Shown in pieces: positions 1 through 58,264 of a DNA stretch of 64,000 nucleotides; position 1 is the stretch's first letter; each line of letters starts with the position of its first letter. This DNA comes from Mytilus edulis (lineage: Eukaryota), in assembly GCF_963676685.1 (NCBI RefSeq), contig NC_092348.1:18476001-18540000 (forward strand). The letters are read 5' to 3'. The notes below the pieces were generated by a model. That model ran no database searches. It was not told where the DNA came from and was given only the letters and a program-made list of their open reading frames with translations. The position numbers and the translations under genes are program-made.

Positions 1-1004
1 TTTTTAAAAGCAAGATGCCAAAACGAGTTAGTGCCTTGCTATAAGTTAACGATATAATTGTGTTATTCATATTACCCCATATCAGCCGTAGTGGAGCTTG
101 ATACTTGTTTTCGTTTATAATATAACAGCAAAATGGAAACGTAAAAAATATATTTACGCATGCCACAAAGGTTTTGTCGTAAAGCAGTGTAGTAACATCG
201 CACCAAAGCTACGCTGATTTCATGAATATTAGATAGCAGTGCAAAAACAGGAACATGCCCTAGGCTTCTCTTCAAACTGCGTAAAAAGGATCAAAAAGAT
301 GTTTTGGGGTTATATGTTAATTTAAAAAAAATCTGTGTTTTATGTTAAAACAATATATGTTTGTTTTCATTGCAATGGAACTGACTTTGAATTATATAAG
401 CATGGCACCAAAAACTAACTGTCAACTACAAATGTATTTAACAAAAATTGAAAGGGATTGTTGGAAGCTATGGACTCTGATACTGTGCATTTTTTTTAGG
501 GATGTGTACTTGCGATACTGAACCTATTTAAATGAAGAAGTTCACTGGCGACATTAAGCCAATCTGGTTATGTTTTGATACAGAGTCGTAGTGATAAAGG
601 ATATGTATTTACTATTAATGTTAAATATTGTGCAAATAAGACGATGTGGATTGATTGGTAATGAGAAAACTTTCCCCAAAGACCAATTTTACAGGAAATT
701 CAATCAGTTCTGCCCCCCCCCTCCCCCCCCCCCCCCATTTCCAAAGTCCTTTATAATAAAACAAAATCTGAATCAAATGTATATATATATTTTTTTTATT
801 AGAATGAGTTCTTTTTCATAAAACGATGTTAGACAATATATTTTAAAACTACTCATGCTTTATAAATCTCCCTTAAACACGATGTTATATCTTCATCAAT
901 ATATTTTTGGTCAGACAAATAGCGAAAACCGTAAAAATACTATTTGTCCGGCTTGCCGGATGAATAGACATTTTTGACTATTTGTCCGGCTAGTCGAACG
1001 AATA

Positions 1005-1500
1005 GCCACTGCCTTAATTGAAGTCTGGAGCTGGAATGTCAACTTACTGCTAGTAGTCTGTTGTTATTTATGTATTATTGTCATTTCCTTTTTTTTGTCA
1101 CATCTTTTTACATCAGACTAGGACTTTTTATTAACTGAAATTTTATTTTGTATTGTTATGCATTTACTTTTCTACATTTGCTAGAGGTATTGGGGAGGGT
1201 TGAGATCTCATAAACATGTTTAACCCCGACGCAATTTTGCTTCTGTCCCAAATCAGGAGCCTCTTGCCTTTGTTAGTCTTGTATTATATTTAATTTTAGT
1301 TTCTTGTGTATAATTTGGAGTTTAGTATGACGTTCATTATCCCTGAACTAGTATATATTGTTTAGGTACCAGCTGAAGGTCACCTCCGGGTGTGGGCATT
1401 TATCGCTGCATTGAAGACCTGTTGGTGACCTTCTGTTATTGTCTGTTCTATGGTCGGGTTGTTGTCTCTTTGACACATTCCCAATTGCCATTCACAATTT
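1005..1500. repeat. Dispersed non-autonomous repeat family (other copies ~22872-22968, 43815-43955, 59832-60057 in opposite orientation)
   Basis: Reverse complement of the 'aaaattgagaatggaaatggggaatgtgtcaaagagacaacaacccg' motif that recurs at least 4 times in the window. No coding capacity; absent from copy B at the equivalent position. Confidence 0.7.
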
Positions 1501-2489
1501 TATATATAAACCAATCTATAATAAATTTCACAAACAGAAACGTAAAAGAACTCATAATATTTATAAAAGAGAAAGATGCCAAAGGGAGATTCAAACTCAG
1601 AAGTCGAAAACAAGGAAACAATGTCATGGCAATAAACGAAGAAATTTAAAGACAAGCAAGTTCATAAAACACAACATAAAAAACTCAAGACTGAGCAAAA
1701 TGAACCCCTTATCACACCAGAGATGATCTCATGTGTACCGGGAGTAAGCAGTTTCTGATCCACTAGTGGTACACGCATTCATTTCATCAGTATACAAACC
1801 TTTCTGTACTAAACTAAAAAGGCACAGTTTTGGCAACTGTTCCTGAGTCGGAATTTCTAACTTTGCAGCAAGTAGCTACAAAGTTTTATATGCTTGAAAA
1901 CGTATTTTGAGTCGAACACGATTTAAGGTATGAATCAGTCTCTGATTAATTGAAACCAAAAGACTAACAACTCAATTTACCGAACAAATATAATACAAAC
2001 GACAACAACTGTCTTACCGAGTCATTACTTGTCATACATTGTAGTCTCATAAAGAATGTGGCGCAGTAGTTACATCTCCTTGTTTAACCTCGTGTTTTGA
2101 CGTCAGTTTGATAAAAGGTTTAACAGACAGATATGGGGTGTGTATTATGTATGAATGCATGAGCCCCGTTGGTAAGAAAACAGTGCAGTTGCAGAATTCA
2201 CATTTGGAAAGCGGACAGCCTTTAAACTATGGAATATAAAGTACGTTACCCGTCAAATATATTTTCACTTGTTATAAATAAGTCCGAACGGTTTCGTTAA
2301 TGAAGGGAATTTGAACTTTTGATTTACTTTTTATTGAAATATAAATTAAAAAGAACTGGTTAGCAAATCTTCGTTATTCGGAACTTGTCTTCCTGCTGTA
2401 ATGGGTTTATATGTATATGTACAAACACTTAGGTCTGAATCATAGTTTAGTTGCAATTTAGGAACGAATATTTAATGTTGCATTTCTCA

Positions 2490-5001
2490 TCCGAAATAGA
2501 TGTAGTGTTGGTTAGCGAGGAGGAAGATACTATTGATGATGAAATCGTGCCGGGTCAGGAGGATGGACATGATGATACTGACATGAATGAGATAATATGG
2601 AGCGAGGCCAATCAAGATGTAAATGTTTGACAGTTTAACGAAAGTACCGGACCTCAAGTCTTATTAAATGCTGATGTTAGTGAACTGGAATGTTTCAATA
2701 CCTTTTTTTACAACAGATATGATTAGTAAAGTGTCCAAGAGAACAACCTAAATGCAACACGCAAACAGCACCTAGCGAGACGAAATGACACACACTGGAC
2801 GGAGACAGATTTTGCTGAAATGTCTGCATATTAAGGTATGTGAAAAACAATATATATTCAAACTAACAATGGTTATACGTGTACGATTGTAAGCTTGGTT
2901 TATAATAAGAAAATTAAATTGAAATGCATAGTAAATTCCCTTTAATTTAAACTGGTATATATACATGTACATGTTTGCATTTTTATGCACTGTTTATGCA
3001 GAAGCCTGTTATTCAGTGGTTGTCGTTTGTTGATGCGGTTCATAGGTGTTTCTTCTTTTTCATGTTGTAGATTAGACTTTTGTTTTTTCCATTTTTGGGT
3101 CCCTTAAATAGCTTGCTGTTTTGTGTACTAAATGTAAGCCTTGACGATATGTTGAAGGCTGTATGTAGACCCATATTTTTTTTTACTCATTGTGACTTGG
3201 ATTGAAAGTTGTTTCATTAGTACTCATACCATGCTTTTATTGACAATATTTATTGGTTTGTACATGCCTTTATTCATGTGTTTGTTCGTTACATGTATTT
3301 TATAATTCTCAAAAGTAGAAGTAGATTTAGTACTCTATGCATGTAGGGTACATTATAAAACTTTACCAAAATTTTACATGTCAAGATATGTATGGACATC
3401 CTATATCCACATGTACATGATGTATATTTAGAAGTGATATTAAAAGTAATATTTTTATGACAAAAAGTTAAAAGCGTATCTTTTATCTTTTCTATGAATC
3501 ATATTTCTTATGGGGATTATACAAGTTCCTGAATACAAGTTTTTATGGTCGACAAATAAATTCCTTGCTGTGGAGGTGTAAAAGATGTCATGCCTGTAAA
3601 AAGATATGAAAAGCTGACACAGTATTTACTTGTGAATGAGCCAGAGGCTGATTCTACTGACAAACTTGCCAGAATTAGGCTTATATTATATTCTGTTCTT
3701 GAAAGATGTCGAGTGCAGATGTAGCTTATAAACCTAGGCAGAACCAAAACATTGACGAGGCAATAATTCCCTACAAGGGTAGATTTTCTGCAAAACAGTA
3801 TGTTCTCTCAAAGCCAGTGAAGTGGGGTATCAAGGTGTGGATGAGATGTGACACAACCTCAGGTACTTACATGTTCAATCAAAATTTGAAATATTATATT
3901 ATATATAAAAGGTTTTGGTTTTTACATGCACTTTTCACTCAACCATGTTATATATAGGACATTTTAGATATAACACCTTTGATTACCAGATATTTTTTCA
4001 ATTGACGTTTACTCTCCCTTATAATCCATGTCATGATGATGTATGCGTGACTAGACATTAAGCAGCAAACAATCAATCATCTATGTTTTAATACGATTAA
4101 TTCAGTTTAAATTAAAAAATGTGTTATCCTTGATCCTTTATAAATCAAAACATTTACTTGTAACTTGCGTTCAGCTGGATTGTTTTTATAATACATGTAC
4201 ATACATGTATGTATATTATGTACTATATTCATCAAATGTTATGTTACAACTTATTTAATTTTCATGATACTGCCATGAATTTGATGTTGACGGTTAAAGG
4301 TTATACTCATATTTGAAGTCGCATGCTTCAAACAAAATTTGAAGGTAAGCAAACAAGTTTAAACTGCCAACTGAAATCCAAATTTACATAAAATACATGT
4401 ATAAATGAGATACCTACAGCACATAACACATGTACTTACATAATGTATTAATTGATGTATACTCTTTGTTTTAGAGTGACATTACTGAAAGGAGACAACA
4501 GGATGGTACTATGAAACAGATCAACAGACCACGGATTATGAATTACCAGGCATACTTTCGTGGTATTGATATTTGTTTCCAACTTCGGACAAATGTCCTG
4601 CTGGAAGGAGCTCTAAAAAGTGGTTGAATTTTTGTTTAACTGTCTCACCAATATTTGTATTATAAATAGCTTTGTTTTGTATGACCACTTCAATCAGGTG
4701 GAAAAGAAGAAAAAAGGGTACACTCAACTTGATTTCAGGCTTAAGTTGGTCGCAAATACATGTATAACCAATGATTACTCTTTCATTAAAAAGAGAACCC
4801 CAGCTTTGGTTATACTCCCAAATGAACATGAGCAGCCCTAAATTGCATAGACATACCAGATTAAAAAGAAAAAAATCAACACGAAAATTTTGTACAAAGC
4901 ATAATGAAAAAAGGAAAGAGACGATCCGTTGTTGTAATACATGTTTTTTATGCCATAGAAGGTTCCATGCTATCATTGGTGTTGTTGTTATGGAAGAGTA
5001 A
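2490..5001 (+). pseudogene. Decayed intron-containing piggyBac (PGBD-like) transposase, copy A
   Basis: Fragments translate to piggyBac motifs: IDEAIIPYKGRFSAKQYVLSKPVKWGIKVWMRCD, IINSFVLY..TQLDFRLKLV, and a Cys-rich C-terminus. Frameshifts and stops; exon-2 acceptor mutated (ag>at near 3495); 5' part deleted relative to copy B. Confidence 0.85.
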
Positions 5002-6363
5002 AGCTGTGAAATTATGAACTATATGTTATGATTACTTAATCCCTAAATTTGACATTAATAACCTTAAAATGAAATAAAGAATAGATCAGTGAAAATTTAT
5101 TATGATTTTTTTTTTAATCAACAACAGCATTTGTTAATGTCCTGTTAAATATTTGTAGATTGTTTGGCAAAGTAATCGATGCGTTTGAACTTTAAAAATC
5201 TTTCAATTTACTTACATTGTTAATGTGTTAAGAAGTGCCTTCAAAGTATTGTAAAGAATACCAGTATGCAAAATATCGAAGACAAACAATGTTTTTTGAA
5301 AAATTTAATGTCTGTGTCTTTGGATTCATAATTGATTTGGCAGATAAGAATATTCTATTCCATTCTTTTCTATAAACATTGTATGACTTTTTAAAGGTTT
5401 GTCTACTTTTGTTGATAAACATGTATAGTTGATTTTTCTGTGAAGTGGATAAAATTATTACTGTATTGAATACTTGTATCAATTGCAGGAATCTCATATT
5501 TTTTTTTATTAATAAAAGTGTCTTCAGTTTAGCTATGAAAAAAAACTGTGCCTGCCTTACACAAACAGTACCGTTTATCAGAGTGGTTTAACTGCATGGT
5601 TAAAATTTTCAATTGATTCAGTTTGTGTTTTTCAATCTGTTGATAATATTTCATTGCATGTTTAGGATCGAAATAGACCGACCTTCTTTTAGGAGGTTCT
5701 AAAATTATTCCCCTTTGTTCACTATGACAACGGCATTTTAAAAACGTAATCAAAAATCAATTTCTGTTTAAATTAGCCGAAGAACACGTGTAGTTATGTG
5801 ACTAATTGACATAAAACTACGATTTTATATCAGAAGTTTTTAATTTTATTATTCATATTGTCTAATAAATTCGGTTACATAACATACGCTGTACATTTTC
5901 AAACTAAACACAGTCCCGCAATCGACAATCGTCAAAATTGACAAAAAATCCACGAAAACAGACAATTTGATACCACGATTATCCCCCGTATTTCATCTCT
6001 GAAGGTATAAAACTATAGTTTATATGATGTTATTAATAGCTCTATGCATGGAACTTATAAATTGTGTCTATGGTGAAGTTTAATAAGTCTAGGCAGATAC
6101 CGTGACATATGAATCAATTAATTACAAGTGCCCGACGTCCAAATGGCCAATTAAATATAACGTGCGGAAATGCAACGTTTTCAACTAAAATGTTCGAGGA
6201 GACGGTGAAAATAAACAAAATGGAAGATAGGGGAAAAGTGTTAAAGTATGTGCCGAAATAAAATATTTCATGAATATACAAAGAGGTAAGACAACTTCGT
6301 AGAAATTGAAAATTGTTCCTAGAAATGTTCATCTTTCCAATCTGTTGCCATAATAAGTCACGC

Positions 6364-7018
6364 GACATTTGACATTTAAACTTATGTATAAAGCGTGTAC
6401 AAGTTGTTTCATATGTATACCAGGTTCATTGAAAGTGTATCGTTCAGAGATACATATGCGGCTGACAATGTGGTTTGGTCTTGTATTGGTGCTGCTTTTA
6501 GCAAAAACATATGCAGATGGAAAACTTACATCCACTTCAGATTCTGGTATTTAAATGTATAACAGAAATTGATGTGTTTTACTCTGTAAATTATTGTACT
6601 AAAAAAAAAAGAAGCGTAAAATTATTTCTAATTTTTACATCATACATTGGTTTTCTTATTATTATAGAGTCAATTTTGCTCATATATCTATGACATTTGA
6701 CATTTAAACTTATGTATAAAGCGTGTACAAGTTGTTTCATATGTATACCAGGTTCATTGAAAGTGTATCGTTCAGAGATACATATGCGGCTGACAATGTG
6801 GTTTGGTCTTGTATTGGTGCTGCTTTTAGTAAAAACATATGCAGATGGAAAACTTACATCCACTTCAGATTCTGGTATTTAAATGTATAACAGAAATTGA
6901 TGTGTTTTACTCTGTAAATTATTGTACTAAAAAAAAAGAAGCGTAAAATTATTTCTAATTTTTACATCATACATTGGTTTTCTTATTATTATAGAGTCAA
7001 TTTTGCTCATATATCTAT
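6364..7018 (+). repeat. Near-perfect 328-bp tandem duplication (6364-6691, 6692-7018) of the FReD core promoter, signal-peptide exon and splice donor
   Basis: ORFs 6369 and 6697 are identical except A/V; units differ by one substitution and one A in a poly-A run; single copy in duplicate B. Confidence 0.95.
6387..6392 (+). promoter_or_regulatory. Putative TATA box of FReD gene A (repeated at 6715-6720; paralogous site 54768-54773)
   Basis: TATAAA 69 bp upstream of the signal-peptide ATG, conserved in all three copies. Confidence 0.45.
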
Positions 7019-10000
7019 CTATGTATTCATTTCATTTTTGTTCTTATCTGTTTTAACTTGATTTTTTAAGGAGTTTGCTTTTATGGGAAAACGGCTGAAC
7101 GAGTACTCAGCATCTTGGCAACTGGTAAATACAGATCTTTGCTGCCTTCAGGTAAAAAGCAAATACATGAACTCACATAAAAATGTAGTTCTAGGTATAA
7201 ATTAATTTTTAGAGTATGACTGTGTCAATATAATAATGTAATATCTTTAAAAAAAAAAAAATACAATTCAAGATTTTTATAAACATAAAACCTTTTTTTG
7301 GTTTGATAAATCAATTTGTGAAGATCAATGCTATAGCTTTACCAAATATTTTAGGTTATCTCTTATATTTTCATATGAACTTACACATACAGGGCCTCAT
7401 GTGCGAGACTGCTCGGATTTAGACCGAAAACATTACAAAAGTGGAGTCTACAAAATATTCCCGGCAGGTGGCGCTGGATTTAAGGCGTACTGTGATATGG
7501 AAACGGACGGGGGAGGGTGGACGGTAAGAATATTTAAATATTAGATGAGGAGTAAAAGCTAGTGAATAATCTATAGAGAGGAGCTTATTTCATATTTTAT
7601 GGTAATATAGTACTTCACTGTAAAGGGTGTGAAAGTCCTCGCTTTTTAATTATTGAAATATCTTGCTCTGTAATTTTACCGATAAAGAGGAATCTGATGT
7701 TTAGTGGTTGTCGTCTGTTTATGAGTTTCATCAGTGTTTTTATATAGATTACACATTTGGTTTTCGCGTTTGAATAGTTTTACACTAGTAATTTTTGGGG
7801 CACTTTATAGCTTGCTGTTCATATCACATCTCATTACACATCTTTCTATATCTAATTAGTATTTGCTTATTATAGAGGTAATATAAGTTCCGTATTTTTA
7901 TAAATTATGTTATATAATATGCACACATGTAATTTACAGGATTTTGTCTTATTCAGCAAAAGCACCAGTAACCTGGAGCACGCCACTTTAAATAACGTTT
8001 CTTTCACTGATTTGAATTCTAGGTTTTTCAGCGAAGACAAGACGGTAAAGTAGATTTCTACCGAGGATGGGAAGACTATGTAAACGGATTTGGTCATTTC
8101 AATACGGAATTCTGGTTAGGTCAGTATTTTCAAATTTTACGCATCCACTAGATTTTTATGTGGTGTACTCTTACATAATTGTCACGGATCATGGTGAAGT
8201 CTGTGTGCTTATAAACATGTGTTCCCCTCCGTTATCGAAATGTAACTTTCCAAATTCAGTAGGCTGTGTGTCAGTGGTTGTCATTGGTTGTTGTCTGTAA
8301 TCTTTGTTTTTTTCGTTTATTGTTTTGTCATAAATCAAACCGTTGCTTTTTTGATTGAGCTGCTTCATATTTTGTATGTTTATGTATTTAACAGGTGACC
8401 AAATTATTGTTGTTATACTCCTTTTTAGCAGTCCGTCTTTGATTCGACTATATTGGATAGGTTTCAAAACGACAAATTATGCTAAATTTACTCATGTTTG
8501 TTAAATCTAATATAAAAGAAGGTTAAATATAAAAAGGACCAACATCTCCATCTTAAATTTCCTCCTTTCCTTTACTTCGATTTTTAAAGGTAATGACAAA
8601 CTATATAAACTAACATCACGAGGACAGTATGAGCTTAGAGTAAACCTGGAGGATTTCAATGGTGATAAAGCCTATGCCAAATATTCTAACTTCTACATTG
8701 GTGACAAGTCAACTAACTACAAACTAACAGTGAATGGTTATAGTGGAACGGCAGGTAATATTTATATTTAAATTAAGTTTTGAATTCACTAAGCTCTTGC
8801 TCCACTGTTTTCATAGAATAGTTGAAAGTACACTTGTTTGAGCTTTTGATTTTGCCACTCGATTGGCATCTTCGCTAGCCAAGGGTTACGATCCACTCCC
8901 GCTATCTTCACCCTTGGCAGATTGAGCCAACATTTGTGATATCAATGTTGCACCATCTATCGGAAGATTAAAATCACGCCCATTCCGAATACATTATTCT
9001 TGACCAATGGTAGCACTTGAACTCTTCAATTTTGAGGAAAAAAACACGGTAGTGTCTAGATTCTACCCACTTGGTAAAGCCGGAAATGACAAAATACGTC
9101 AACATTCATGCATTTGTGCATGAAACATACACAGGAACCTCTATTAGTTGATTAAAAACATTCAAGTTGTCACCAAATATAGTCGTATGTTTAGTGATGT
9201 AAAGACTTGTTGCACAATAAACACGTGGCAATTGTTTACAAATAATTTCTACATTTACACGTGATCATGTTATAGGCGCTTTTTGATTGGATGCAGCGAG
9301 TTTCTACTGCAACCAATAAAAATCCTTTTCTTGTGTCTCCGAAATATTATCTCAATCCGCCAAGGGTGAAGAGAGCGGGAGTGGATCGTAACCCTTGGCT
9401 AGCGAAGATGCTCGATTGGGGACTTTAAGTTTTGAAATTACCTCGGCGTTCAGTGTTTTTGTGATTTTTCTTATACGGCACAAGAATGTAATGAGTAGGT
9501 TTAATAAAACGAAATTTAAAATACTGTTTAAAATTAATCCGGCTTTTAAGATGGTGGCAATGCAAAATAAGAACACACTGGACACTTGAATTATCACTGC
9601 ATTCAGTATTCGATTTTAAAACGTATCTAAAATTTAAATATGTACAAGCACTAAGCCCTTACACATTCAAATTTGAATTCGGTATTAATCATAATAAGGC
9701 TGTATGAACTTGCAAAAGACAAATTACTATTTAAAAAATATGAATTTGTTTTCATGGCTTGGTTGTTTGCTTTATACTAGTATATCATATGGAAGATGAA
9801 ATTGTCCATTTGTGATTTGCAGAATGTGAAATTGAAATAAATTAGCAATTTGATGAAATACAATTATTTCAAACTGTCTCCAAAGTCTTCATGAAATGGA
9901 TGTAATTGGTTTTTATTCAGAGCATTAATTGTTATAAAATCTAGTACTCTATATGTCTAATTTATAGAAACCAGGATGCTTACAATTTATTAGCCTAACC

Positions 10001-10398
10001 ACTGTAGATCATTTATTCACATTTAATAATAAAATTATTTGGTGAATCACTATTGTTGTAGCTAAAACGATATAACTGAATATGCAGTGCATATGAAGTT
10101 GTTTTTATTTTCATCGTTATCGAGTCTACATTTTTTTGTTCAAATAATAGGTGATGCTTTGAAGCGACATAATGATCGTGCTTTCTCGACAAAAGATAAG
10201 GATAATGACACCTATAGCAGTGAAAATTGTGCAAAGAATTACAAAGGGGCTTGGTGGTATTACAACTGTCATGTATCTAATCTGAACGGACTGTATGTAG
10301 GAAATAAGAAGGATGACAAAGGAATGCGTTGGAGTCATTGGAAAGGATCTCAGTCAATGAAGACTACGTCAATGATGATTCGTAGGAAACGTCTCTAA
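6456..10398 (+). CDS. Secreted fibrinogen-related domain protein (FReD/FREP, ficolin/tachylectin-5-like lectin), paralogue A, ~270 aa
   Basis: Phase-consistent GT-AG exons 6456-6546 (or duplicate 6784-6874), 7071-7151, 7393-7523, 8023-8119, 8590-8754, 10151-10398 (813 nt). Signal peptide [23 protein letters not shown] motifs [74 protein letters not shown] at 10418. Confidence 0.93.
8867..9410. mobile_element. Non-autonomous TIR transposon (MITE), ~58-bp TIRs, 9-bp TSD (Mutator- or AcademH-like) in intron 5 of FReD A
   Basis: TIR CATCTTCGCTAGCCAAGGGTTACGATCCACTCCCGC... with its reverse complement at the right end; TSD CTCGATTGG at 8858-8866 and 9411-9419; empty site with a single CTCGATTGG in copy B (~56899). 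Confidence 0.92.
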
Positions 10399-10759
10399 CA
10401 GAGTGTGCTATCATTAAAATAAATGCAGATAAACCATTGTATTGAAAATATATCTTGTTATTGTTATTATTTGTTCTCCTCTCGAATACAAATGCACGTT
10501 ATATATGTACATGTATATTGATTTTAACTTATCATTTATTTTCTATTAGATATCCCTCTCTTCCATGTGAATTTTTGAAGGTTTTATTAAGCTGAAAATG
10601 CTGAAAAAGTCTTACAGGTTTGACTTTTTAACTTTATAGTCATACGCATACCTGATGAACATAACGCTTGGATGTATGCTTTTTTAATTAGTTGTTTGTG
10701 GCTTTAAACTGGCTGTCAGTAACTGTGAGTACTCTCAGATATGTACTTAGTGTCTTTTG

Positions 10760-11160
10760 GGTTCCATTAATATATCCCTCAGGACTAGAAATTACAGAAA
10801 CAACAGAAACGGCTCCATCCGCCTCATTTATAGACTTATACCTCGAATTTGACATACACATTCATCTAAGTACCAGAATCTATGACAAACGAGATTTCCT
10901 CTACCTTAGTAGCAATATACCAATTGCACCTGCATATGGGATATACATTTCCTAACTTATTTGATATTTTTTGATAGTTTTCGGCTCCTACTCAAACTTT
11001 GTAAAACGTCACCAGTGTCTGAGCAGAAAGTTGATGAACCAGTTGATGTCAGAACGTCTCGTTCTTTTTCTAAAAATAAGTTCATCGGAAGGTACCAAGA
11101 CCTTGTTGATAAATACTTCTTATCCACTTTACAAATTATACATGATGGTCGTGATGTATA
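10760..11160 (+). mobile_element. Degenerate Penelope-like RT 3' fragment (paralogous copy 58620-59040)
   Basis: IYPSGLEITETTETAPSASFIDLYLEFD..LSTRIYDKRD..SSNIPIAPAYGIYIS, homologous to the better-preserved copy at 62767-63192. Confidence 0.8.
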
Positions 11161-12989
11161 TATTCTGCGTACTGACGTTATTAGTTTAATAACGTGTTAT
11201 ATTGTTCTTTTTTTCTATTTTTAATAGAACGTTTACTGTTTGATCAGTTTTCTGTGATATCCATTTGAGTAGGCTCGGTACTTCTACATCACGTCAATGT
11301 TTATTTATAAACAAAATGAAATTTTGGTGTATAATATGTGAGTTTTTTTATTTATTTTCTAAGGATCATATACCAAAAAAAAAAACGGAATATGAAATGG
11401 TGGCTTTCCTTACTTACGTACTGGAAGAACGTGGAATCTTACTCTTCAAAATATTTGACAATGAAAATAATCAATTCACGCTGAATGCATGTGCATTAAC
11501 GCTGTATGAAGAAGAGCATGGCTTGCTATAAGACAAAACAAAAAGTAAAATAACGAAAATATCCAACTCCATGAAAAAAATAAAAACAGAAAGTCCCCAT
11601 TATGGAATCAGGAGCTCAAACACATAACCGAAGACAAAAAAACTTGCCATATTCCTCACTTAATCAAAATAGTCAATCCGAACACCTGAGGTGAAAATTT
11701 ACTTCTTTCAGTAGAAACGTTTTCGAATATTCGCAAGCCTTAACTTGGAATATTTGATGTGCCTTTTCCCTTTGATCTGCCAAAAAGTGAAAACCTCTGT
11801 CGATTATTGAAGAACTAGAAGTCTATATGATCAAATTCAAATTGCAGTTAAAAAAACTTAAATCTGGGTTCATGGTAGTTTCAAATAGTCATGCAATGAA
11901 AACTACTTTATTTCAAAGCAGGTAACTCTACGTTATCACCAATAGAGTAACAAAAAACAATTCAACAATCATACTCGTTTCTGCCAATTTTTTTTTACAT
12001 GTACTGCTACATACATACGTACATGAGTATAATCTTTATTAATAGACCCTAGTATCATCAAATCAAACAAAAGTCTTAAGGTCTATCTTAAATATTTTAA
12101 ACAACAATCAATCAATTAGTAGCTATATCAAATTGAATATTGTATTTTTAAATGACAACAATATTTTCTTGTACCTTAATGAAACGTGAATCTTGCTTAA
12201 ACGTGCAACTCATCGTGTCTCGTATAAAAATATAAAGAAAAAACTATCCATCCTTGTAGCTCTTGTTTGTACGCACACTTTATAGAGTTTTCTTCTGAAG
12301 CAGAAATGACCTTGTTTAAGGGGAGTATCTTGAAATAAATGCATAACTTGTAAACGAAAATTTGACAATATTCTAGAAAAAAGTAAAAACACTATTTGTA
12401 TTCATCATGCATAGATGATTTCTTCACAAGAATATGTATGATGATATTTTTAAAGAAGGGGTACTAATGGATTAAACACCAACACGATACGAAGAATACA
12501 TTTTATTTTTGTTAATATTTGTTTTCAGAAACAGTATAATCTAACTACACAGGACGAACATCAAGACAATCAATAAGTTCCAAGCTTTGTTGTTCTCGCC
12601 CAACTGCCTAGGTATCGGTAAACTGAAAGTAGAGCTATATCATCACAACTGATCAGCGCCAAAGTTTTGATTGAATATAAATTCATACTATTCCGAAATA
12701 TTTGAGAAAAGAGTGTCAAAATATTTTAAGTTATTTCAACATATTCACAAATTAAAAGAAGCCGGACATTTTTAGTACTGACACGATATAACTCATACAT
12801 GTTACTATTAAGCTCCAGGTCAATTATGAAGTCATGTTGTTCAGTAGTACTAGAGAAATGTGTAGCGAAGAAAAGTACGTTCATTCAACATACTTATAAA
12901 CAAAACATGAACAAACAGCAGGTAGGTGTTTGACATATGTGATAAGTGCTCACATAACACAAATAATCACAGTCAAGCTGCTGACCTCA

Positions 12990-13343
12990 TTTGAAGTCCA
13001 ATGGGAACAAACTGTGCCCCTCTACTTGCCGACTTGTTTCTTTATTATTATGAGGCTGACGTAATGATGGAACTTCTTAGGAAGAAAGATAAGAAGTAAG
13101 CAATATCCTTTAACTCTAATTTCCGCTATAAATATGATGTTCTTTCACTAAATAATTCAAAATTTAGTGACTATGTGGATCGCATCTATCCAATCGAGCT
13201 AGAGATAAATGATACCACAGATACAGTTAAGTCGGCCTCATATCTTGACTTACATCTAGAAATTGACAATGAGGGTCGGTTGAAAACAAAACTTTACGAC
13301 AAAATAGAGGATTTCAGCTTTCCAATTGTGAACTTTCCATTTC
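12990..13343 (+). mobile_element. Penelope-like RT fragment, left part, interrupted by Tx1/L1 LINE
   Basis: PMGTNCAPLLADLFLYYYEAD..FRY..DVLSLNN..IYPIELEINDTTDTVKSASYLDLHLEIDNEGRL..NFPF; near-identical to 62701-62934. Confidence 0.88.
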
Positions 13344-14847
13344 AAATCCAAAGACACCTATCTATTCACTTCGGTATTAGTTTTACTAAGGGTATTATAC
13401 ATACTGATGTATTAAATGAACTCAAAACTCTAGTTGATCAAAACGAAATAAAAACCATACAAATTACAGAGAAAGATTGTATAGTTACAGTAAACGACCA
13501 GAACACAAAACATACCTTACTCACACGAGGAATAAACTTGAAAAACCGTTTCATCAAAATGGTAGATGTAGAACAAGAAGTTACAAATGTGACTATAAAA
13601 GATGCCCCGTGTGAAATGAGTGACATTACAATATGTGGCCATATTTCAAAATTTGATGATGTTGTGCATGGGTCCCTACGCAGGGATCTAAATAAAGATA
13701 CAAATATTGAGACCGGCACACGTTATGTTCAACTAACAAACTGTGTCCCAATAATTCCAACCGCAACCAAATTCGGGAGGTTCAGTGTCAGGGTATTCGA
13801 AGACAATAATAGGACAGAGTGTCCGTACTGTACGAAAACAGACCATCCATCCTATCGATGCTCAAACAAACCCTCCCGTCAAAATCAAGCGGCACGCAAA
13901 TGTTATCGATGCAACAGTACTGAACATACAATAAAAGATTGTCCCCACTGCGAAAAGGTATGCTATTGGTGCGGGAAAGAAGGTCACATACAAAGGGATT
14001 GTCAGACTGATGACAAAGAAATGTATGTTGTCTATGTACATGACATCCAGGAAGGCAGATACGCCAATAAAGATGACTCGTTTACCGAGGATAATAACAC
14101 AGAGGAAGTTATTATTGATCTAAACAAAACCACTGAAAATGTGATTGATCTGAACAAAACCACTGAAAGTGTGATTGACAAAAAGAACGCTACATTCCCG
14201 ATTTCTCAAACAATAATATTTGGTGCATCCAATTGCAGTCGCCTTAGAATTGAGGACCCAAGTGTAAATATCATAGCGGTATCAGGCACCACTCTTGATC
14301 AAATTGACAAACTTGTTTGCGAATCTGACTACATAGTCAATTCTGACTATGTTACTAATGTGATTTAATCATTAGGGACAAATGACATCAGTAACCTCTG
14401 GAGCGACACCGAGCAAATAACGGCAAATCTCACGACACGTATAGATACAGTTAAAACCAAATATTTAAATGCACGCATTGGCATAAGCAGTATTCTACCA
14501 AGAAGAGGTAAGATTGCCTCTATACAAACATTGAATACAGCAACAAGATCTGTCAATAGTTTTACACAAAAACTCTGTGTAAAAAAAAGGTGCTGAAATA
14601 TATTGACCTATGGGACGAATTCGCTCCCAACAAAACACCAAACCCAGTACTGTTCGATTTGAACGACCCGAGTGGGGTTCATATCAGCAAGTTCGGTACA
14701 GAACTGGTAGAAAATATATTCGAGGACTTTATTAATTCAGATTGTGAAGGTGAATATCAAACCCCGAGTAAAAAACGTAATCGAAGTTCAAGTTCAACTT
14801 CTGGCTCTAGCGAGAAACAAGTAACCAAGATGCCCAAATCATACTAA
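13344..14847 (+). pseudogene. LINE ORF1: gag-like zinc knuckles followed by SGNH/GDSL esterase-like domain
   Basis: CPYCTKTDHPSYRC, CYRCNSTEHTIKDC, CYWCGKEGHIQRDC; then IIFGASN (block I), LGTND just after the stop at 14366-14368 (block III) and SGVHIS (block V). One stop and one frameshift. Confidence 0.8.
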
Positions 14848-15404
14848 CTAATTATTTACAATATATATAGTGCATGATTTCTTTTATTGTAGTCGAAATC
14901 TAAACTGCTATAATGCATCTGTTTAATTCAACTTTGTCAACAATATTCAAAATCAATGTTAATTTTAAACAGCTTGTAAAATTCCAATGTTTATTTTTAT
15001 TTACATATAAACACGTGGACTACGTCCTGAATTGCGACCCTAAAATCAATGTAAAATTGACAAATATTTCAAAGAGTTGTTGTAACTTATGTATGTTCAC
15101 CAACGTACACTATGAAATTACCAAATTATGTGTTATCAGATAGTAAAATATGCAATATGTTTAATTATTATGTGGTACGAAGAAAACAAGTTTTCATGCT
15201 TATTTGTAGTAACCAATGTGGGTTTCGGACTAGACCACAAATCGGAAAATGAATGAAGGTGTTTATTTAATAAAATTTGAAAGGCAGTTACGGGTGTATG
15301 CTCATCCCAGTGAACTGTGACGATGTCATAAGTATGCACGAGTAAAATGAAACGTTTGTAATTGTGAAATACTTTCTATATATATTTTACCATAACTTTG
15401 TATT

Positions 15405-18400
15405 ATGTCAATTTCAATTGTTAGTTTAAATGTCAATGGTATGGTATATAATAAAAAACGAAATGCCGTTTTTTACTGGTGTAAAACGAAAAATATTGAC
15501 GTAATATGCTTGCAAGAAACACAAAGCTCTAGCGAGGTCGAAAAGAAATGGAAAAACGAATGGAAGGGGGACAGTTTTTGGAATCACGGATCAAGTAATT
15601 CAAAAGGGGTAGCGATTCTTTTTTCAGAAAAATTTAAATTTGAAATCTCTAAAAACGGCCAAGATAGTAATGGTAGAACAATTTCTGTACATGTTAAAAC
15701 ACCAGGAAATAACGTGATTTTTATTTACAATATTTATGCTCCAAATTTTGCTGGTGACAGAAAATTATTTTTTGAAAAAACTATTCTTATTGATAACGGT
15801 AATAGAAATATCGTTCTTGGGGACTTTAACTGTGCTCTTATAAAAAAACTTAGATCGATAACCGGTGCCTTTTCGAGAAGACATTGAATCGCTTGAATTA
15901 AAAACATTTTTCGAGCATAACGAATTAATAGACGTGTGGAGAAAACGATACCTTAAAGACAAACAATATACTTTTTGTCGGGGTAACTCAAGGTCACGAA
16001 TTGATTATTATTATATTATAAGTAGTGAGCTTCAGTATTAATCGCAACAGGCAAAAAAAAGTTAATTTCCCGTTCAGTGACCACGACGATGTATTCATGA
16101 AATTAAAAACAAATGAACCAGAATGCGGTCCCGGAACGTGGAAAATAAACTCATCAGTTATTCAATCGGATTTATTGAGAAATACGCTCGACAGCTTTTG
16201 GGAAAACTGGAAATTAAAAAAAAAAATTCGAAAGTAGTCTTGAATGGTGGGAGGAAACTAAGATAAAAATAAAAAGTATTACTATAGAAGTGTCAAAGCA
16301 ATTAAACGTTACAGAAAAACAAATAAGGGAGTGGGGAAAAAATTGGATAAAATTACGGGATCCGATCTTACAAATAACATGAATAATGAAAACTAGTTAA
16401 ATGATTTAAAAGTTAAAATAAAAGACTATTATGACAAAAAAGTCGAGGCAGTCAGAATCAGGTCTAAGGTTAATTGGTAGGAGAAAGGCAAAAAACCTAC
16501 AGGGTACTTCTTTAATCTAGAAAAAAAGAGGGGCGCGGAAAAATTATGGTCTAGAATAAAAGGTGCAGACGGGAAGTATAAAGATGGTATAGAATCTATT
16601 TTAGAAGAACAAGTATCTTTCTACAATAAAATATTTACGTCCGAGGTGTGGGATAGGGAGGCTGCAGAAAATCTATTACAGAACATAGACCATAAACTAA
16701 CCGAAGAAAATAACAAAATGTGTGAAATGGAAATAACTTTGGATGAAATAAGTAAGGCCATTAAAATTTTGAAACCTGATAAATCCCCTGGGGAAGACGG
16801 AATTGTAAATGAATTTTACAAAATATATTGGTATTTGATAAAGGACGACTTCGTAGCAGTTATTAAGGAAATCTTTGACAACAATTTGCTCTGTGAATCT
16901 CAATATAGAGGTATGATTACGCTTATGTTTAAGTCTGGGGAAAGAGAAGACATAAAAAAATTGGCGTCCTATAAAGCTCTTGAACACGGACTATAAAATT
17001 ATTTCCAAAGTACTCGCGATAGTTTAAAAAATGTATTACCGCAAATAATTGATTTCGATCAAAAAGGGTTTGTCAAAGGGCGCAACATTTTTCAAGGCAA
17101 TAGATTACTACAAGATGTTATAGATTTTTGTGAATTAGAAGATGAGGAGGGTGCGATATTATTTTTGGATCAACACAAAGCTTTTGATAGGGCGGAATGG
17201 GAATAGATCGACTTTTGCTTATTAAAATTTGGGTTTGGGGAAAAATTCAGGAGTTGGGTAAAAATGCTTTGCATTAACGCCAAGACGTGTATTCATACGA
17301 ATGGGTTTACTTCTAGATTCGTAGGCATAACCCGTTCAATTCGTCCAGGATACCCAATAGCCCCGATGTTATATATCCTGCAAGCAGAAGCACTTGCAGC
17401 ATCAATTAAAACAATTCTTATATAGAAGGAATAAAACTTCCCACTAGGACTGGGGACTATATTGAAACAAACCTAAATATGTTTGCTGACGATACTCAAC
17501 TCTTTAATAAAAGCGAGGAGTCTTTCGAAGAAACATTTAAAACTATAAAACTGTACGAAAACGCTTCGGGGGCTAAAATGAATATGGATAAGACTGTTGG
17601 CATGTATTTAGGGAAGTGGCGAAATGAAAAACCAAAATTTAACAAAATTAAATGGTCTAAGCGTCCTGTGAAAGCATTAAGGGTACAACATGGCTATGGG
17701 TGGACTTGGATCAAATTTGGTTAGAAAAAATGAATAAGATAAAAAGCTGTATGGAAGTTTGGAAATCAAGAGATCTCACATTTACGGGAAAAGTTTTAAT
17801 TATTAAGTCCTTTGTAATGTCCGTCATTGGATACGAAATCGATATGAGAGGTATCCCGGATATATACGAAAAACAAATAAATAATATTATATAGTCCTTT
17901 ATATGGGATGGGAAGACAAACCAAATCGCTAGAACAGTGTGTTATTAACCGACAGAATTGGGGGATAGGAATGATAAACTTAAGGGACTTTATTTTAAAT
18001 CAAAACAAGTGAAAAGTATGTACAGTATTGTCAACTCAAAAAAACAAAATTGGAATGCAATAGGGAAATACTGGTTAACGTCACTAGACGAAAAATATGA
18101 TACAGATTTTTTTATATGTTCTTGTTCGGACACTACATGTTTTAGGCAAATACAAGTGTCCAAATATTATAAAGAACTTTTAATTTCCTGGACTGACTTA
18201 CAGAAAATCCAAAAATCGGTCACGAAAGAGGACCTTTTAGAAGAAAATATATTCGGCAATTGTAAATTTAAGTTCAAGGGACATGCATTATATTATGCAA
18301 ATTTTGCCTCCAGTGGAATAAAAAATAATAAAAGATATATGGGACTTAAAAACAATAAATCCTTTAAAACTTCTTTTGATATTTTTAACAGTCTTAAAGA

Positions 18401-19160
18401 TAAAAGGAATTTAATTGCAAAATATAGCCGAATTAAGTCTTCGTTAACACCGCAACAAATTGACGTTTTAAAAACAGACTCTATCACACAAAGTCATTCT
18501 GAAAGACCTATAAAAATAACAAATTCTTGTCAATTTATAAAAAATGGAGTTGTCGTTAATGCCAAAAAGTTATGCCTTAAAGATATTAGATACTTTTATG
18601 AGAATAAAACAGCTCCAAATACCAAGTTAAAGTGGAATTTACATTTTGGGAATGAACTACCAGGGGAATACATTTGGGAAACTTTAAATAAGAATTTAGC
18701 TAACAGGAAAACTAAACAACTTCAATGGAAGTTACTACATAATATAATTTACACTGAAGAAAAATTACAAAAAATGAATCGCTCAAACAGGAAGTGTCAC
18801 TTTTGCAATGAAAACGAATCACTTGTTCATCTTTTTATTTATTGTAAACTGGTAGAAGACGTTTAGCGGAAAATTTTTGAGAAAATATGGGAATTTTGTT
18901 CAAAATTAAATATCGAAAAATTACAAAACTCGGAAACAAGTATAATTTTTAGGGTCATTAATGCAGATGCATCTTATACCCAAATTTTAGATACGGTGCT
19001 TTTAATCACCAAATGGGTTATCTGGAAAACTAGAAATATCGCAAAATATCAAAAGAAAGGGATAAGTAAATCGGTGATTTTAAATATGATAAAACATAAA
19101 ATGCAATTTTTGCTCAATGTCTTAAACCAAATACGAAAAACGAAGCCTTTTCTACTATGT
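15405..19160 (+). pseudogene. LINE ORF2 (endonuclease + reverse transcriptase + zinc finger), multiply disrupted
   Basis: Consecutive + strand ORF pieces 15405, 16025, 16646, 17479, 17700, 17958 and 18996 carry Tx1/L1 ORF2 motifs in order. Confidence 0.9.
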
Positions 19161-20420
19161 GTGAAATCTTTTGTATATAAATATATATTTTGCGTGGTCA
19201 GGTCAGTGCAATGGCCTCTTTGATACTGATTGAAGAACAGTGTGTACACTGCTCTCAACTCCCTACATGTAATTTCTATTGTGTATGTAATTCATGTATA
19301 TTATCGAAGTGTAATAAGACATGTTGTATCAACAGGTTCATATTATCAACAAATATTTACTCACCATATCTTTGAAATAAATCCTTTTTGAAAATCAAAA
19401 TCATTAATCCATTTTTATGAATGAACTACACATCCCTTTAACAAATCGCACGTGGTAAATGAGCAATAGACCAGATATTAAATTTAATTGAAATTGACAT
19501 AACAAAAGACTTGATGTACGATAAAATTGAAGCTGCTTAATACAGGTAGCCTTTGTGAGAAATAAATAAAGATAAAATATACTTTATTCAAAAAATTATG
19601 TATGGTGAGAGGTAAAGATATATAGATCGATAATGATTGAAGGTACATATACATTTGTACAAGGATAGATAATATTTATAAAGGTTGATGTTAATAATTC
19701 ATAGTGGGAGATTTTTTTTCTCAAATGTTTTTTCCCCGACAAATGAGAGTGTAAAAATTGGGGCCCCCTTAGTTGCTCCCCTGGGCAACTAAGGGTTGAT
19801 GTAACAGGTGATTGTTAATAAAATATGCTTAATTAAAGGTAGGAACATTTACCATTTACACAGGATTTTTTTTTGTTTGGAAATTTATCACGAATGTACA
19901 AAGGTGACCCTCAAAACAATATTTTTCTCTGGATTAAGCAATATATATATATAATACACGATATTTTAAAGGAGAATTAAGTTTAACAGCATTGATTGAA
20001 AAAAAAACCACATCATTATATTTTGGAGAAGAAGATATCAATTAAAAATAAATGTTTTGACAAGTTTAACTAAGCTTGGTGCATTTACCAAGAGGCTTTA
20101 AAGGATAATTTGGTGGATTAGCAACTATACAAAATTACCAGACATCAAACTAAATTTTTTTTTTTGATATTTGTTTATTTGTTTTTTCTTTTTCTTTTTC
20201 TTAATCATATTTTAATTTTTTTTTATTTATTAATTCTCTATACTTTTTTTGTATGTCCTTTTTAATAATATACAATTATAAAATCCCAACAAAATGTTAT
20301 TTTCCAGTTCTATACATTTTCCGATAGATTGTATTATATTACATTCATATATATGAACTAACTGTTTGATAACTGTACTGTTGTATATTATATATGTTGG
20401 ATAAAAAAAAAATAAAAAAA

Positions 20421-28500: not shown

Positions 28501-29012
28501 TCCATGTTCTGCTTCCTGTCGCACGGTAAATCAGATCTTATGTACATGACTATTCCACCCCCATGTGCATTTCTGTCTTTTCTCCAGAAATGGTAGTTAT
28601 CAACCCTAAATTGGGCATCTGGGAAAGACTGGTCTATTTTAGTCTCTGCAATAATGAGGAGATCTACTATGTTTTTACATAACAGTTCTTGGATTGAGCA
28701 AAATTTGTAGCGTAGACTGTTAATGTTTAGGTAAGAACTGATAAATTTATTTGGATGTTTCTTTCTTACCGTGTATAGTTCGTGAAATATATCATGAGAT
28801 GCATCGTCTTGATCTAGTATAGGTGCTTCGGTGTTTACATCGGATGTTGGCACAGTAATGTCAGATGCGGATACGGTGAGGTCTTCATCTGAATCCGTAT
28901 CTGTATTTGAAGTCAGATGATGGAAATCGAAAAATGAATCAGTGAAGTTTGGTAGATGTGGATGAAGTCTCCAAAATTTTAACCTCAAGTCCAGCCACGA
29001 CAACAACAACAC
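25590..29012 (-). mobile_element. CR1/L2-group LINE, 5'-truncated, ORF2 frameshifted; (TCTTA)n 3' tail
   Basis: Minus-strand endonuclease (YLNINSL, AETKID, LGDLN, SDVH) and RT (NYRPVSIL, DLSKAFD, GVPQGSILGP, YADD). The 3' end has AATAAA followed by a tandem TCTTA microsatellite at 25590-25620. Confidence 0.93.
25918..27366 (-). pseudogene. Reverse transcriptase portion of CR1/L2 ORF2 (482-aa open segment)
   Basis: Complete RT motifs including YADD; upstream ORF2 is broken into several frames. Confidence 0.88.
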
Positions 29013-35243: not shown

Positions 35244-35495
35244 GTACTTACATGTTCAATCATAATTTGAAATATTATATTATATATAAAAGGTTTTGGT
35301 TTTTACATGCACTTTTCACTCAACCATGTCATTTTAAGATATGTTAGATATAACACCTTTGATTACCAGGTACTTTTTCAATTAACGTTTACTAATCCTA
35401 ATAATCCATGTCATGATGATGTATGCGTGATTAGACATTAAGCAACAAACAATCAATCATCTATGTTTTAATACGATTAATTCAGTTTAAATTAA

Positions 35496-37137: not shown

Positions 37138-37410
37138 AAAGAAGATGTACTTATGATTGCCAATGAAATAACTCTTCACAAGAGACCAATGCAAATGACA
37201 TATACAATTAACTACTACATTTCTAGCATATGCCAACGTACAGCCTTCAACAATGAACAAAGCCTATTCCGCATAGTCAGCTTTAAGAGGCCACCACATA
37301 ATGACAAATGTAAAACAACTTAAACGAGAAAACTAACGGCCTAATTAATGTACAATAAAATGAACGAAAACACAGCAACAAAAGATAACCACTGAAATAC
37401 AGGCTCCTGG
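37138..37410 (+). repeat. Dispersed SINE-like/non-autonomous repeat (inverted copy ~44730-44915; fragments ~640-690 and 31700-31800)
   Basis: aagaagatgt..atgattgccaatga..caactc..cacaagagacc..gccttcaacaatga motif recurs in the window. Confidence 0.65.
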
Positions 37411-41580: not shown

Positions 41581-41792
41581 GAATTTACGACAAGGCTGTT
41601 GAGCAAGGTCGCATAGTAAAGACAAGGCCAAATTTATTGGCAAGGTCGTTTGTTGATGACAAGGCCAAATTTAATAGGCAAGGTCTCACTGACATGGCCA
41701 GTATGAAAAATAAATCTGGCAAGGTCATTTAATTATATTGTAAGCTTGTTGTATAGTAGATTATATTTCTATTTCATATGCACGTTTTTCAG

Positions 41793-45770: not shown

Positions 45771-45794
45771 TTATCGCCCAAAAAGATATATAAT

Positions 45795-49452: not shown

Positions 49453-49455
49453 CCA

Positions 49456-54836: not shown

Positions 54837-57800
54837 ATGTGGCTGACAATGTGCTTTGGTCTTGTATTGGTGCTGCTTTTAGCAAACACATATGCAGATG
54901 GAAAACTTACATCCACTTCAGATTCTGGTATTTAAATTTATAACAGAAATTGGTGTGATTTACTCTGTAAATTATTGTACTAAGTGTAAAATTATTTCCA
55001 ATTTTTACATCGTACAGTGGTTTTCTTATTGTTATAGAGTGAATTTTGCTCATATATTTATCTATGTATTCATTTCATTTTTGTTCTTATCTGTTTTATT
55101 GGTTGTTTTTAAGGAGTTTGCTTTTATGGGAAAACGGCTGAACGAGTACTCAGCATCTTGGCAACTGGTAAATACAGATCTTTGATGCCTTCAGGTAAAA
55201 AGCAAATACATGAACTCACTTAAAAATTTAGTTCTAGGTATAAATTGATTTTTAGAGTACGCCTGTGTCAATATAATAATGTAATATCTTATAAACCAAA
55301 AAATACAATTCAAGATTTGTATAAACATAAAACCTTTTTTGGTTTGATAGATCAATTTGTGAAGATAAATGCTATAGCTTTACCAAATATTTTAGGTTTG
55401 CTCTTATATTTTCATATGAATTTACACATACAGGGCCTCATGTGCGAGACTGCTCGGATTTAGACCGAAAACATTACAAAAGTGGAGTCTACAAAATATT
55501 CCCGGCAGGTGGCGCTGGATTTAAGGCGTACTGTGCTATGGAGACGGACGAGGGAGGGTGGACGGTAAGAATATTTAAATATTAGATGATGAGTAAAAGC
55601 TAGTGAATAATCTATAAAAAGAAGCTTATTTCATATTTTATGGTAATATAGTACCTCACTGTAGAGGGCGTGAAAGTCCTCGCTTTTTAATTATCGAAAT
55701 ATCTTGCTCTGTAATTCTACCGATAAAGAGGAATCTGATGTTTAGTGGTTGTCGTCTGTTTATGAGTTTCATCAGTGTTTTTATATAGATTACACATTTG
55801 GTTTTCGCGTTTGAATAGTTTTACACTAGTAATTTTTGGGGCACTTTATAGCTTGCTGTTCATATCACATCTCATTACACATCTTCCTATATCTAATTAG
55901 TATTTGATTATTATAGAGGTAATATAAGTTTCGTATTTTTATAAATTATGTAATATAATATGCACACATGTAATTTACAGGATTTTGTCTTATTCAGTAA
56001 ATGCACCAGTAACCTGGAGCACGCCACTTTAAATAACGTTTATTTCACTGATTTGAATTCTAGGTTTTTCAGCGAAGACAAGACGGTAAAGTAGATTTCT
56101 ACCGAGGATGGGAAGACTATGTAAACGGATTTGGTCATTTCAATACGGAATTCTGGTTAGGTCAGTATTTTCAAATTTTACGCATCCACTAGATTTTTAT
56201 GTGGTGTACTCTTACATAATTGTCAAAGATCATGGTGAAGTCTGTGTGCTTATAAACATGTGTTCCCCTCTGTTATCGAAATGTAACTTTCCCAATTCAG
56301 TAGGCTGTGTGTCAGTGGTTGTCATTGGTTGTTGTCTGTAATCTTTGTTTTTTTCGTTTATTGTTTTGTCATAAATCAAACCGTTGCTTTTTTGATTGAG
56401 CTGCTTCATATTTTGTATGTTTATGTATTTAACAGGTGACCAAATTATTGTTGTTATACTCCTTTTTAGCAGTCCGTCTTTAATTCGACTATATTGGATA
56501 GGTTTCAAAACGACAAATTATGCTAAATTTACTCATGTTTGTTAAATCTAATATAAAAGAAGGTTAAATATAAAAAGGACCAACATCTCCATCTTAAATT
56601 TCCTCCTTTCCTTTACTTCGATTTTTAAAGGTAATGACAAACTATATAAACTAACATCACGAGGACAGTATGAGCTTAGAGTAAACCTGGAGGATTTCAA
56701 TGGTGATAAAGCCTATGCCAAATATTCTAACTTCTACATTGGCGACGAGTCAACTAACTACAAACTAACAGTGAATGGTTATAGTGGAACGGCAGGTAAT
56801 ATTTATATTTAAATTAAGTTTTGAATTCACTAAGCTCTTGTTCCACTGTTTTCATAGAATAGTTGAAAGTACACTTGTTTGAGATTTTGATTTTGCCACT
56901 CGATTGGTGACTTTAAGTTTTGAAATTACCTCCGCGTTCAGTGTTTTTGTGATTTTTTCTTATACGGCACAAGAATGTAATGAGTAGGTTTAATAAAACG
57001 AAATTTAAAATGCTGTTTAAAGTTAATCCGGCTTTTAAGATGGTGGCAATGCAAAATAAGAACACACTGGACACTTGAATTATCACTGCATTCAGTATTA
57101 GATTATAAAACGTATCTAAAATTTACATATGTACAAGCACTAAGCCCTTACACATTCAAATTTGAATTCGGTATTAATCATAATAAGCCTGTATGAACTT
57201 GCAAAAGACAAATTACTATTTAAAAAAATATGAATTTGTGTTCATGGTTTGGTTGTTTGCTTTATACTAGTATATCATATGGAAGATGAAATTGTCCATT
57301 TGTGATTTGCAGAATGTGAAATTGAAATAAATTAGCAATTTGATGAAATACAATTATTTCAAACTGTTTCCAAAATCTTCAAGAAATGGATGTAATAGAC
57401 CACTTTCGAGTTCATCCGTCACCGAAAAAAACTCGTCAATTATACGCGCCTTTTGTCATTTACCAGATAGAGGGGGTCGCCTGTATCCCTGCACTATTTA
57501 CGTTCATCAAGCGTCTTAGTGATCGTCATTGTGCAGGATAAACTAGAAATAATGAATGTTCTGTAGGTACTTAATGACAATTCCCTAATGACAGCAATGC
57601 TGATTGTCAATTTTGAGAATTCAATTTGCAGAATAATTCGTACAATATAGAATTATAGTTTTCCAACCACTCGCTCAACATTGGAATGGAAGTGACGACG
57701 CCCCTAAACGCACAAATGACGTTCACTAAAACCAGAGTTTTTGACGGAAATGCATCGACCTCGAAAGTTGTCTATTGGTTTTTATTCAGAGCATTAATTG

Positions 57801-58264
57801 TTATAAAATCTAGTACTCTATATGTCTAATTTATAGAAACCAGGATGCTTACAATTTATTAGCCTAACCACTGTAGATCATTTATTCACATTTAATAATA
57901 AAATTATTTGGTGAATCACTATTGTTGTAGCTAAAACGATATTACTGAATATGCAGTGCATATGAAGTTGTTTTTATTTTCATCGTTATCGAGTCTACAT
58001 TTTTTTGTTTAAATAATAGGTGATGCTTTGAAGCGACATAATGATCGTGCTTTCTCGACAAAAGATAAGGATAATGACAATACTAGCGGTGAGTGTGCAA
58101 AGAATTACAAAGGTGCTTGGTGGTATAACAACTGTCATGACTCTAATCTGAACGGACTGTATCTAGGAAATAAAAAGGATACCAAAGGATTGCGATGGAG
58201 TCAGTGGAAAGGATCTCAGTCAATGAAGACAACGTCAATGATGATTCGTAGGAAACGTCTCTAA
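54837..58264 (+). CDS. Secreted fibrinogen-related domain protein (FReD/FREP, ficolin-like lectin), paralogue B, ~269 aa
   Basis: Exons 54837-54927, 55114-55194, 55434-55564, 56064-56160, 56631-56795, 58020-58264; all GT-AG and in frame; same FBG motifs as paralogue A; AATAAA at 58284. Confidence 0.93.
57397..57773. mobile_element. 377-bp MITE with AT TSD in intron 5 of FReD B
   Basis: TIR AGACCACTTTCGAG / CTCGAAAGTTGTCT; empty site gatgtaATtggttt in copy A (~9899-9912). Confidence 0.9.

Follow-up and report, generated by a model that had tools for sequence, protein, structure and literature searches.

Genes A and B are tandem single-fibrinogen-domain genes of Mytilus edulis, located in a window of 64,000 nucleotides (the whole stretch of DNA analyzed here; contig NC_092348.1, positions 18,476,001 to 18,540,000, forward strand). 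Parts of their coding sequence are identical, and their last exon is markedly divergent. The locus thus raises the question of what the divergent segment encodes, how old it is, and which process has kept it different. The features on which the answer depends are as follows.

6784..10398, forward strand: gene A, encoding a single-FReD secreted-type protein of 270 aa (XP_071173041.1) with PF00147 as its only domain
6784-6874, 7071-7151, 7393-7523, 8023-8119, 8590-8754, and 10151-10398, forward strand: exons of gene A
54837..58264, forward strand: gene B, encoding a protein of 269 aa (XP_071171951.1), with splice joints
54837-54927, 55114-55194, 55434-55564, 56064-56160, 56631-56795, and 58020-58264, forward strand: exons of gene B
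10151..10398, forward strand: exon 6 of A, the C-terminal Ca2+/pocket subdomain of the FReD
10209..10338, forward strand: divergent patch in A (codons 209-251), with 17 of the 18 exon-6 base differences and the indel
58078..58204, forward strand: counterpart of the patch in B, with a Ca2+ loop one codon shorter
9905..10210, forward strand: near-identical A/B tract, comprising the end of intron 5 and the first 60 nt of exon 6
8023..8754, forward strand: exon 4 to exon 5, where the duplicated copies are most alike (7 differences over 732 aligned nucleotides)
1..12917, forward strand: repeat unit with A; the partner unit starts near 30881 and continues past the end of the window

Both six-exon models have canonical GT/AG borders and open frames, and each protein is identical to an NCBI M. 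edulis record (P0001 for A and P0034 for B). All 5 introns of B were seen as GT..AG joints, read directly in contigs from runs whose RNA-type label is a guess, and these joints show that the B introns are spliced. Fibrinogen_C (PF00147) was identified with 253 bits at residues 61-266, and the fold match described below agrees with FReD membership. A single FReD follows a short N-terminus, judged hydrophobic by reading the sequence, which is the architecture of the single-FReD, lectin-like proteins of Mytilus. No collagen Pfam match or Gly-X-Y run was identified in A and B, as a ficolin in the strict sense would have, and the Pfam search returned no IgSF domain before the FReD, such as a strict gastropod FREP has. 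Gene A has 2 copies of exon 1 owing to a 328-bp tandem duplication (6364-6691 and 6692-7018, 99.4% identical); the copies differ at codon 16 (A/V), NCBI isoforms X1 and X2 match one each, and the duplication is either recent or an assembly slip.

The repeat units are 84-86% identical in their distal 5' part and 95-99% identical in the gene body, and they are unlike in distal flanks and transposon content. Two copies of a 747-bp element (35492-36238 and 52874-53619, 96.8% identical, with terminal inverted repeats of ~225 bp) lie upstream of B, each at a TTAA target as in piggyBac-type non-autonomous elements, inserted into the remnant of a piggyBac-like transposase (PF13843, 3703-3954 in the unit of A). 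A 15.5-kb insertion with terminal inverted repeats (36364-51872) is private to the unit of B. Within it lie DDE transposase fragments (48464-48793) and a tyrosine-recombinase retrotransposon that looks intact (38518-43356), with a zinc knuckle, RT, and recombinase; insertion of this retrotransposon is recent, given split direct repeats that are 99-100% identical. Intron 5 carries a private inverted-repeat insertion in each copy, of ~0.55 kb with a 9-bp target duplication in A (8867-9419) and of ~0.38 kb in B (57397-57773), the latter abundant in RNA runs. LINE-type retrotransposon fragments were located between the genes and beyond them, at 13100-19223, 25918-29012, and 62698-63192, with zinc knuckle and RT Pfam matches in 2 of them.

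A preliminary description had compared A and B by hand, and formal alignment reproduced its per-exon counts; the peptides it quoted are correct. The copies differ at 4 nucleotides and 4 amino acids in exon 1, 1 and 1 in exon 2, 3 and 2 in exon 3, none in exon 4, and 2 and 1 in exon 5. Exon 6 has 18 nucleotide differences in 245 positions, amounting to 9 substitutions, an indel of 1 codon, and 5 purely silent codons, an excess over exons 2-5 (6/474, p=4e-5), introns 4 and 5 (p=8e-6), and all aligned non-coding DNA (p=0.005). The adjoining sequence is nearly identical, as had been described, with ~2 differences in 9905-10150 and 2/102 in 10399-10500. Of the 18 protein differences, 10 fall in exon 6. 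The description did not mention that exon 1 has an equal replacement rate (pN 0.060 vs 0.059 in exon 6) or that the highest 100-nt peak of the unit is non-coding (16 differences in 10501-10606 vs 12 in 10206-10308). That non-coding segment, which begins just 3' of the stop codon, is partly a small rearrangement of the TACATGTATAT motif and is variable in other samples too. From 5' to 3', divergence was 4.7% upstream, 9.1% in intron 1, 5.9% in intron 2, 3.2% in intron 3, 1.1% in intron 4, 2.0% in intron 5, 7.3% in exon 6, and 3.4% downstream. Divergence is therefore not uniform across exons and introns; the A/B unit is a mosaic of ~84% to 99% identity, in which a local peak that includes silent sites stands between flanks of low divergence, with non-coding peaks besides.

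We asked which part of the protein the divergent codons encode. A structure model built from a 90-sequence alignment reached pLDDT 84 (31 close sequences gave pLDDT 37), and its top fold match was FIBCD1 (Foldseek E 4.5e-28, rmsd 1.5). The pocket was mapped by HMMER sequence alignment onto residues named in PMC3908420 and PMC10825690. On this mapping, D206 and D208 are the probable Ca2+ ligands (D393/D395 of FIBCD1) and C215 and C228 the likely counterparts of C401 and C414, in both A and B; residues 209-214, among them the counterpart of H396, would form the Ca2+ loop, and 228/229 the Cys-His pair. Residues 226 and 227 appear to match R412 and N413 of the secondary pockets, and 244 appears to match Ala432 at the pocket base. 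H229 aligns with H415 and Y219 with Y405, and D206, D208, C215, Y219, C228, and H229 are the same in A and B. The A/B changes occupy 6 of the 14 rim positions defined from FIBCD1 and 4 of the 62 other exon-6 positions (p=0.002), which bears out the earlier remark that they cluster on the Ca2+ loop and around the pocket. Across 31 other Mytilus proteins, the 9 substitution sites have a mean entropy of 1.75, compared with 0.60 at other exon-6 sites (p=7e-5).

The preliminary description had called this an acetyl-group-binding site, and that wording has to be narrowed. The Ca2+ ligands and the C401-C414 pair of acetyl-binding FReD lectins are present in A and B, and the equivalents of the Cys-His pair and Tyr405 are kept. 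Of the acetyl-pocket residues Tyr405, His415, Tyr431, Ala432, and Trp/Tyr443, however, the sequence alignment retains only 2 of 5 (Y219 and H229): Tyr431 is replaced by Asp or a gap, Ala432 by Asp in A and Thr in B, and Trp443 by Ser or Gln. Only Ala fits at position 432 of FIBCD1, according to PMC3908420. Because Tyr431, Ala432, and Trp443 are not conserved, canonical N-acetyl binding by A and B appears doubtful, and "lectin" is a name they would owe to family membership.

The age of the patch was read from its silent sites. Silent divergence between A and B is 0.24 in the patch (5.5/23) and 0.026 in exons 3-5 (2/76.7; Fisher p=0.007), a rise of ~9-fold that falls to near zero on either side; the excess persists without the indel loop (p=0.016), and against all non-coding DNA it is weak (p=0.03 when 5 changes are counted and 0.09 when 4 are). 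In 27 other C5 pairs, which are not independent, the means are 0.30 in the patch, a comparison resting on just 23 silent sites, and 0.41 in exons 3-5. Silent change is thus raised in exon 6, as had been noted, and since it approaches the level between paralogues, the patch is old. A and B both carry A191 and R198, in place of the S and H of the other copies, so their recent common ancestry extends to the very edge of the patch.

The earlier account dealt with this pair only, and we found that the patch varies both among mussels and within the cluster. Protein predictions from other assemblies, which are alleles or paralogues (P0033, P0039, and P0037, along with 2 partial ones, P0106 and P0002, of which P0002 was assigned by similarity alone), match A in exons 3-5, and each has its own pocket mosaic at positions 209-218, 226, 227, 230, and 244. 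Among 5 full copies (A, B, 2 other M. edulis models, and 1 M. galloprovincialis model), 16 of 77 exon-6 positions were variable, whereas exons 3-5 had 3 variable positions out of 127, each of them private to B. With B excluded, 13 variable sites remained in exon 6 and 1 in exons 2-5 (6 sequences, 2 of them partial). Nine informative sites gave 12 four-gamete conflicts, which point to recombination or recurrent change. The variable fraction was higher in exon 6 in 6 of 7 orthogroups, and the G-type orthogroup was nearly invariant, even against M. californianus (P0011).

Independent sequencing runs contained both patch types. Run X15 yielded a contig with the exact difference count of A (15 letters and 5 gaps; the 7 listed letters and all listed gaps agree with A) at depth 408, a gap-free B-like contig with 5 differences at depth 346, and 1 common exon 4-5 contig at depth 776; run X16, under a different species label, contained the patch of B with 1 difference in 176 bases and no gap. 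Contig depth in these runs is no gauge of expression. A B-type or B-like patch therefore occurs under 2 species labels, an outcome that mussel hybridization could also produce. Metagenome scans for orthologous DNA returned 0 matches and then 2 unrelated loci, and 4 DNA-type contig sets, taken at 85% similarity, let paralogues in and yielded no usable alleles. One raw-read RNA run, of which ~6% was read, covered intronic repeats only and no exons, which is not evidence of silence.

One way to obtain an old patch in a young gene pair is import, in which A or B acquired its patch, once or occasionally, by copying from a different paralogue, which may be absent from the assembly. A DNA search identified 12 exon-6 copies on C5 (18.47-19.20 Mb) and more on C3, 17 of which were extracted, including A and B; the family comprises at least 150 exon-6 candidates (150/150 scored passed, of 429). 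Import would fit the paralogue-like silent depth of the patch beside homogeneous exons 3-5, the patch-only ML tree, in which A and B are not grouped, and the 10 of 22 patch states that B has in common with G (10 also with H). It would also fit the 2 paralogues whose exon 6 lies as follows.

C5:18801167-18801398: exon 6 of paralogue F
C5:19010017-19010248: exon 6 of paralogue G

These exons are near-identical (2-3/76 aa, with 0 replacement changes in codons 209-251), and exons 3-5 of F and G differ at 20-21 of 127 residues, the opposite of the A/B pattern, which suggests patch exchange within the cluster. None of the 17 extracted copies corresponds to P0006, P0007, P0008, or P0035, gene types known from the annotation of other Mytilus assemblies. 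This suggests presence/absence variation in the cluster; P0006 has a 15-residue stretch in common with A. No donor was found, however, among the 15 other copies on 2 contigs or in genome searches with A and B, and the best genome-wide match of B is A. Over the patch region, 18 positions separate A from B, and the nearest other copy is 19 differences from A and 23 from B. Six patch states of B occur in none of the 15 copies, and derived states lie on both the A and B lineages. Trees group A with B both for exons 3-5 (bootstrap 92) and for exon 6 as a whole (69), and this grouping is not rejected by the patch (AU p=0.33), for which no other pairing is preferred; the exon-6 tree is rejected by exons 3-5 (AU p=0.009), with p=0.052 in reverse. 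A silent-site run test (10 paralogues, 65 sites, 45 pairs) detected no tract surviving correction (best p=0.005). A single patch from a third paralogue, as first suggested, is thus not borne out, and import in general, which leaves the separate mosaic of every other copy unexplained, is unlikely. Defective copies, which have stops or frameshifts or consist of an orphan exon 6 only, are scattered through the cluster at C5 18.56, 18.70, 19.04, and 19.20 Mb and are possible conversion templates.

FReD surface loops may vary from low constraint alone. Loose loops, together with very high mussel heterozygosity and hybridization, could in principle yield the mosaic with no selection on binding, and we consider this quite unlikely. 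It agrees with A/B pN/pS ratios below 1 (0.42 in exon 6 and 0.47 in the patch) and with the equally high non-coding peaks of a unit that is a mosaic throughout. Codon site models, run with our own code on 10 paralogues, gave no signal of positive selection in exons 3-5 (121 codons, omega 0.18). In exon 6 (76 codons), M7/M8 gave p=0.015 and M8a/M8 p=0.048, with 11% of sites at omega 1.8, although M8 is sensitive to indel-loop alignment and to recombination, which can inflate it; M1a/M2a was not significant (p=0.20). Copies with stops or frameshifts (C564, E700, K203, and c3e) and copies with exons absent from the fetched DNA (I042, c3c, and c3d) were excluded, and D588 was retained despite 1 mutated splice donor. 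The top M8 sites were 194, 213, 218, 226, and 250, which overlap the A/B changes at 226 and the indel loop only. Evidence for positive selection on exon 6, which had been suggested earlier as diversifying selection, is weak. An absence of selection on binding fits poorly, however, with omega above 1 in exon 6 only, with an exon-6 excess that recurs in 6 of 7 orthogroups, and with the sharp silent rise confined to the patch.

Decay of B under relaxed selection is very improbable as the source of the patch. Seven amino-acid changes in exons 1-5 are private to B, compared with 2 silent differences; one of the 7 is D92A (window 55536, codon 92), at a position where Asp occurs in 81 of 86 ungapped rows and Ala in B alone. 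RNA-type contigs of X15 and X17 contain A-type exon 1 only, and several cluster members carry stops or frameshifts. Yet the exon-6 changes spare the conserved residues, the patch of B recurs in independent contigs, which makes decay an unlikely cause of it, and the mosaic holds without B. Decay may account for exons 1-5 of B, not for the patch; the B haplotype sequenced here may be degenerating, with its pocket type surviving elsewhere. An assembly artefact, with 2 alleles placed in tandem or consensus errors, is more improbable still. Gene-body non-coding divergence (3.5%) does lie within the mussel allelic range, but the independent contigs exclude consensus error, the units are unlike in distal flanks and transposon content, and the patch would be genuine variation between alleles even if the tandem were false.

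We therefore favor, as moderately probable, the reading that old pocket-rim variants are kept by balancing or diversifying selection while exchange homogenizes the remainder of the gene. A and B would be 2 copies of one mussel single-FReD gene whose rim (codons 209-251) exists in several old variants that selection presumably preserves, and silent sites linked to these variants would diverge along with them. Recombination and gene conversion would even out the flanks and reshuffle rim residues, so that the mosaics would arise from exchange instead of repeated mutation, and unequal crossing-over may have produced the tandem unit, with 2 pocket types on one chromosome. Selective maintenance has against it the pN/pS below 1, the null M2a result, the equal or higher non-coding peaks, and the run test without a tract. 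A further-reaching version, possible but doubtful, is that the chromosome-scale FReD cluster is a germline pocket-shuffling system in which a rim cassette of ~130 bases is swapped among alleles, paralogues, and pseudogenes and ancient types cross Mytilus species; if true, every mussel would carry a recognition repertoire of its own, built on an unchanging scaffold. With over 100 genes in the family, the place of diversity and its effect on recognition are hard to test, and natural variants with a near-identical scaffold and ~10 different pocket-rim residues are a ready-made test series. Such a series lets one ask whether invertebrate innate receptors have MHC-like binding-site polymorphism, and it bears on what a FReD without a canonical acetyl pocket binds.

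The FReD gene family and its diversity are already known, and mussel fibrinogen-related proteins are described as very diverse in PMC5549309, PMC5877582, and PMC3039611. A and B resemble the Mytilus single-fibrinogen-domain lectins/FREPs in having a hydrophobic N-terminus and one FReD with no collagen or Ig domain, and in belonging to a large family. No report of pocket-rim localization, deep silent divergence, or mosaics in mussel FReDs was found in the literature as far as its text was available, and Gorbushin and Iakovleva 2011 and Romero et al. 2011 may contain one. A and B are like human FIBCD1, M- and L-ficolin, and tachylectin-5A in fold, the Ca2+ Asp pair, the Cys pair, the His, and Tyr405, but they differ in a loop 2 residues shorter, in lacking Tyr431, Ala432, and an aromatic 443, and in having neither collagen stalk nor membrane anchor. 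A divergence peak under gene conversion is known from exon 5 of the red/green opsins and from RHD/RHCE, alongside haplotype mosaics of the MHC type, and PMC3924837 describes such a peak as a signature of conversion with selection. What A/B has in common with these systems is a divergent patch of presumed function in which silent change is raised, set between homogenized flanks, together with a cluster containing pseudogenes and with mosaic variants. The opsin differences are fixed between paralogues, whereas the mussel patch looks multi-allelic. The A/B pattern is a fresh instance of this known evolutionary pattern, and a wider one than first noted.
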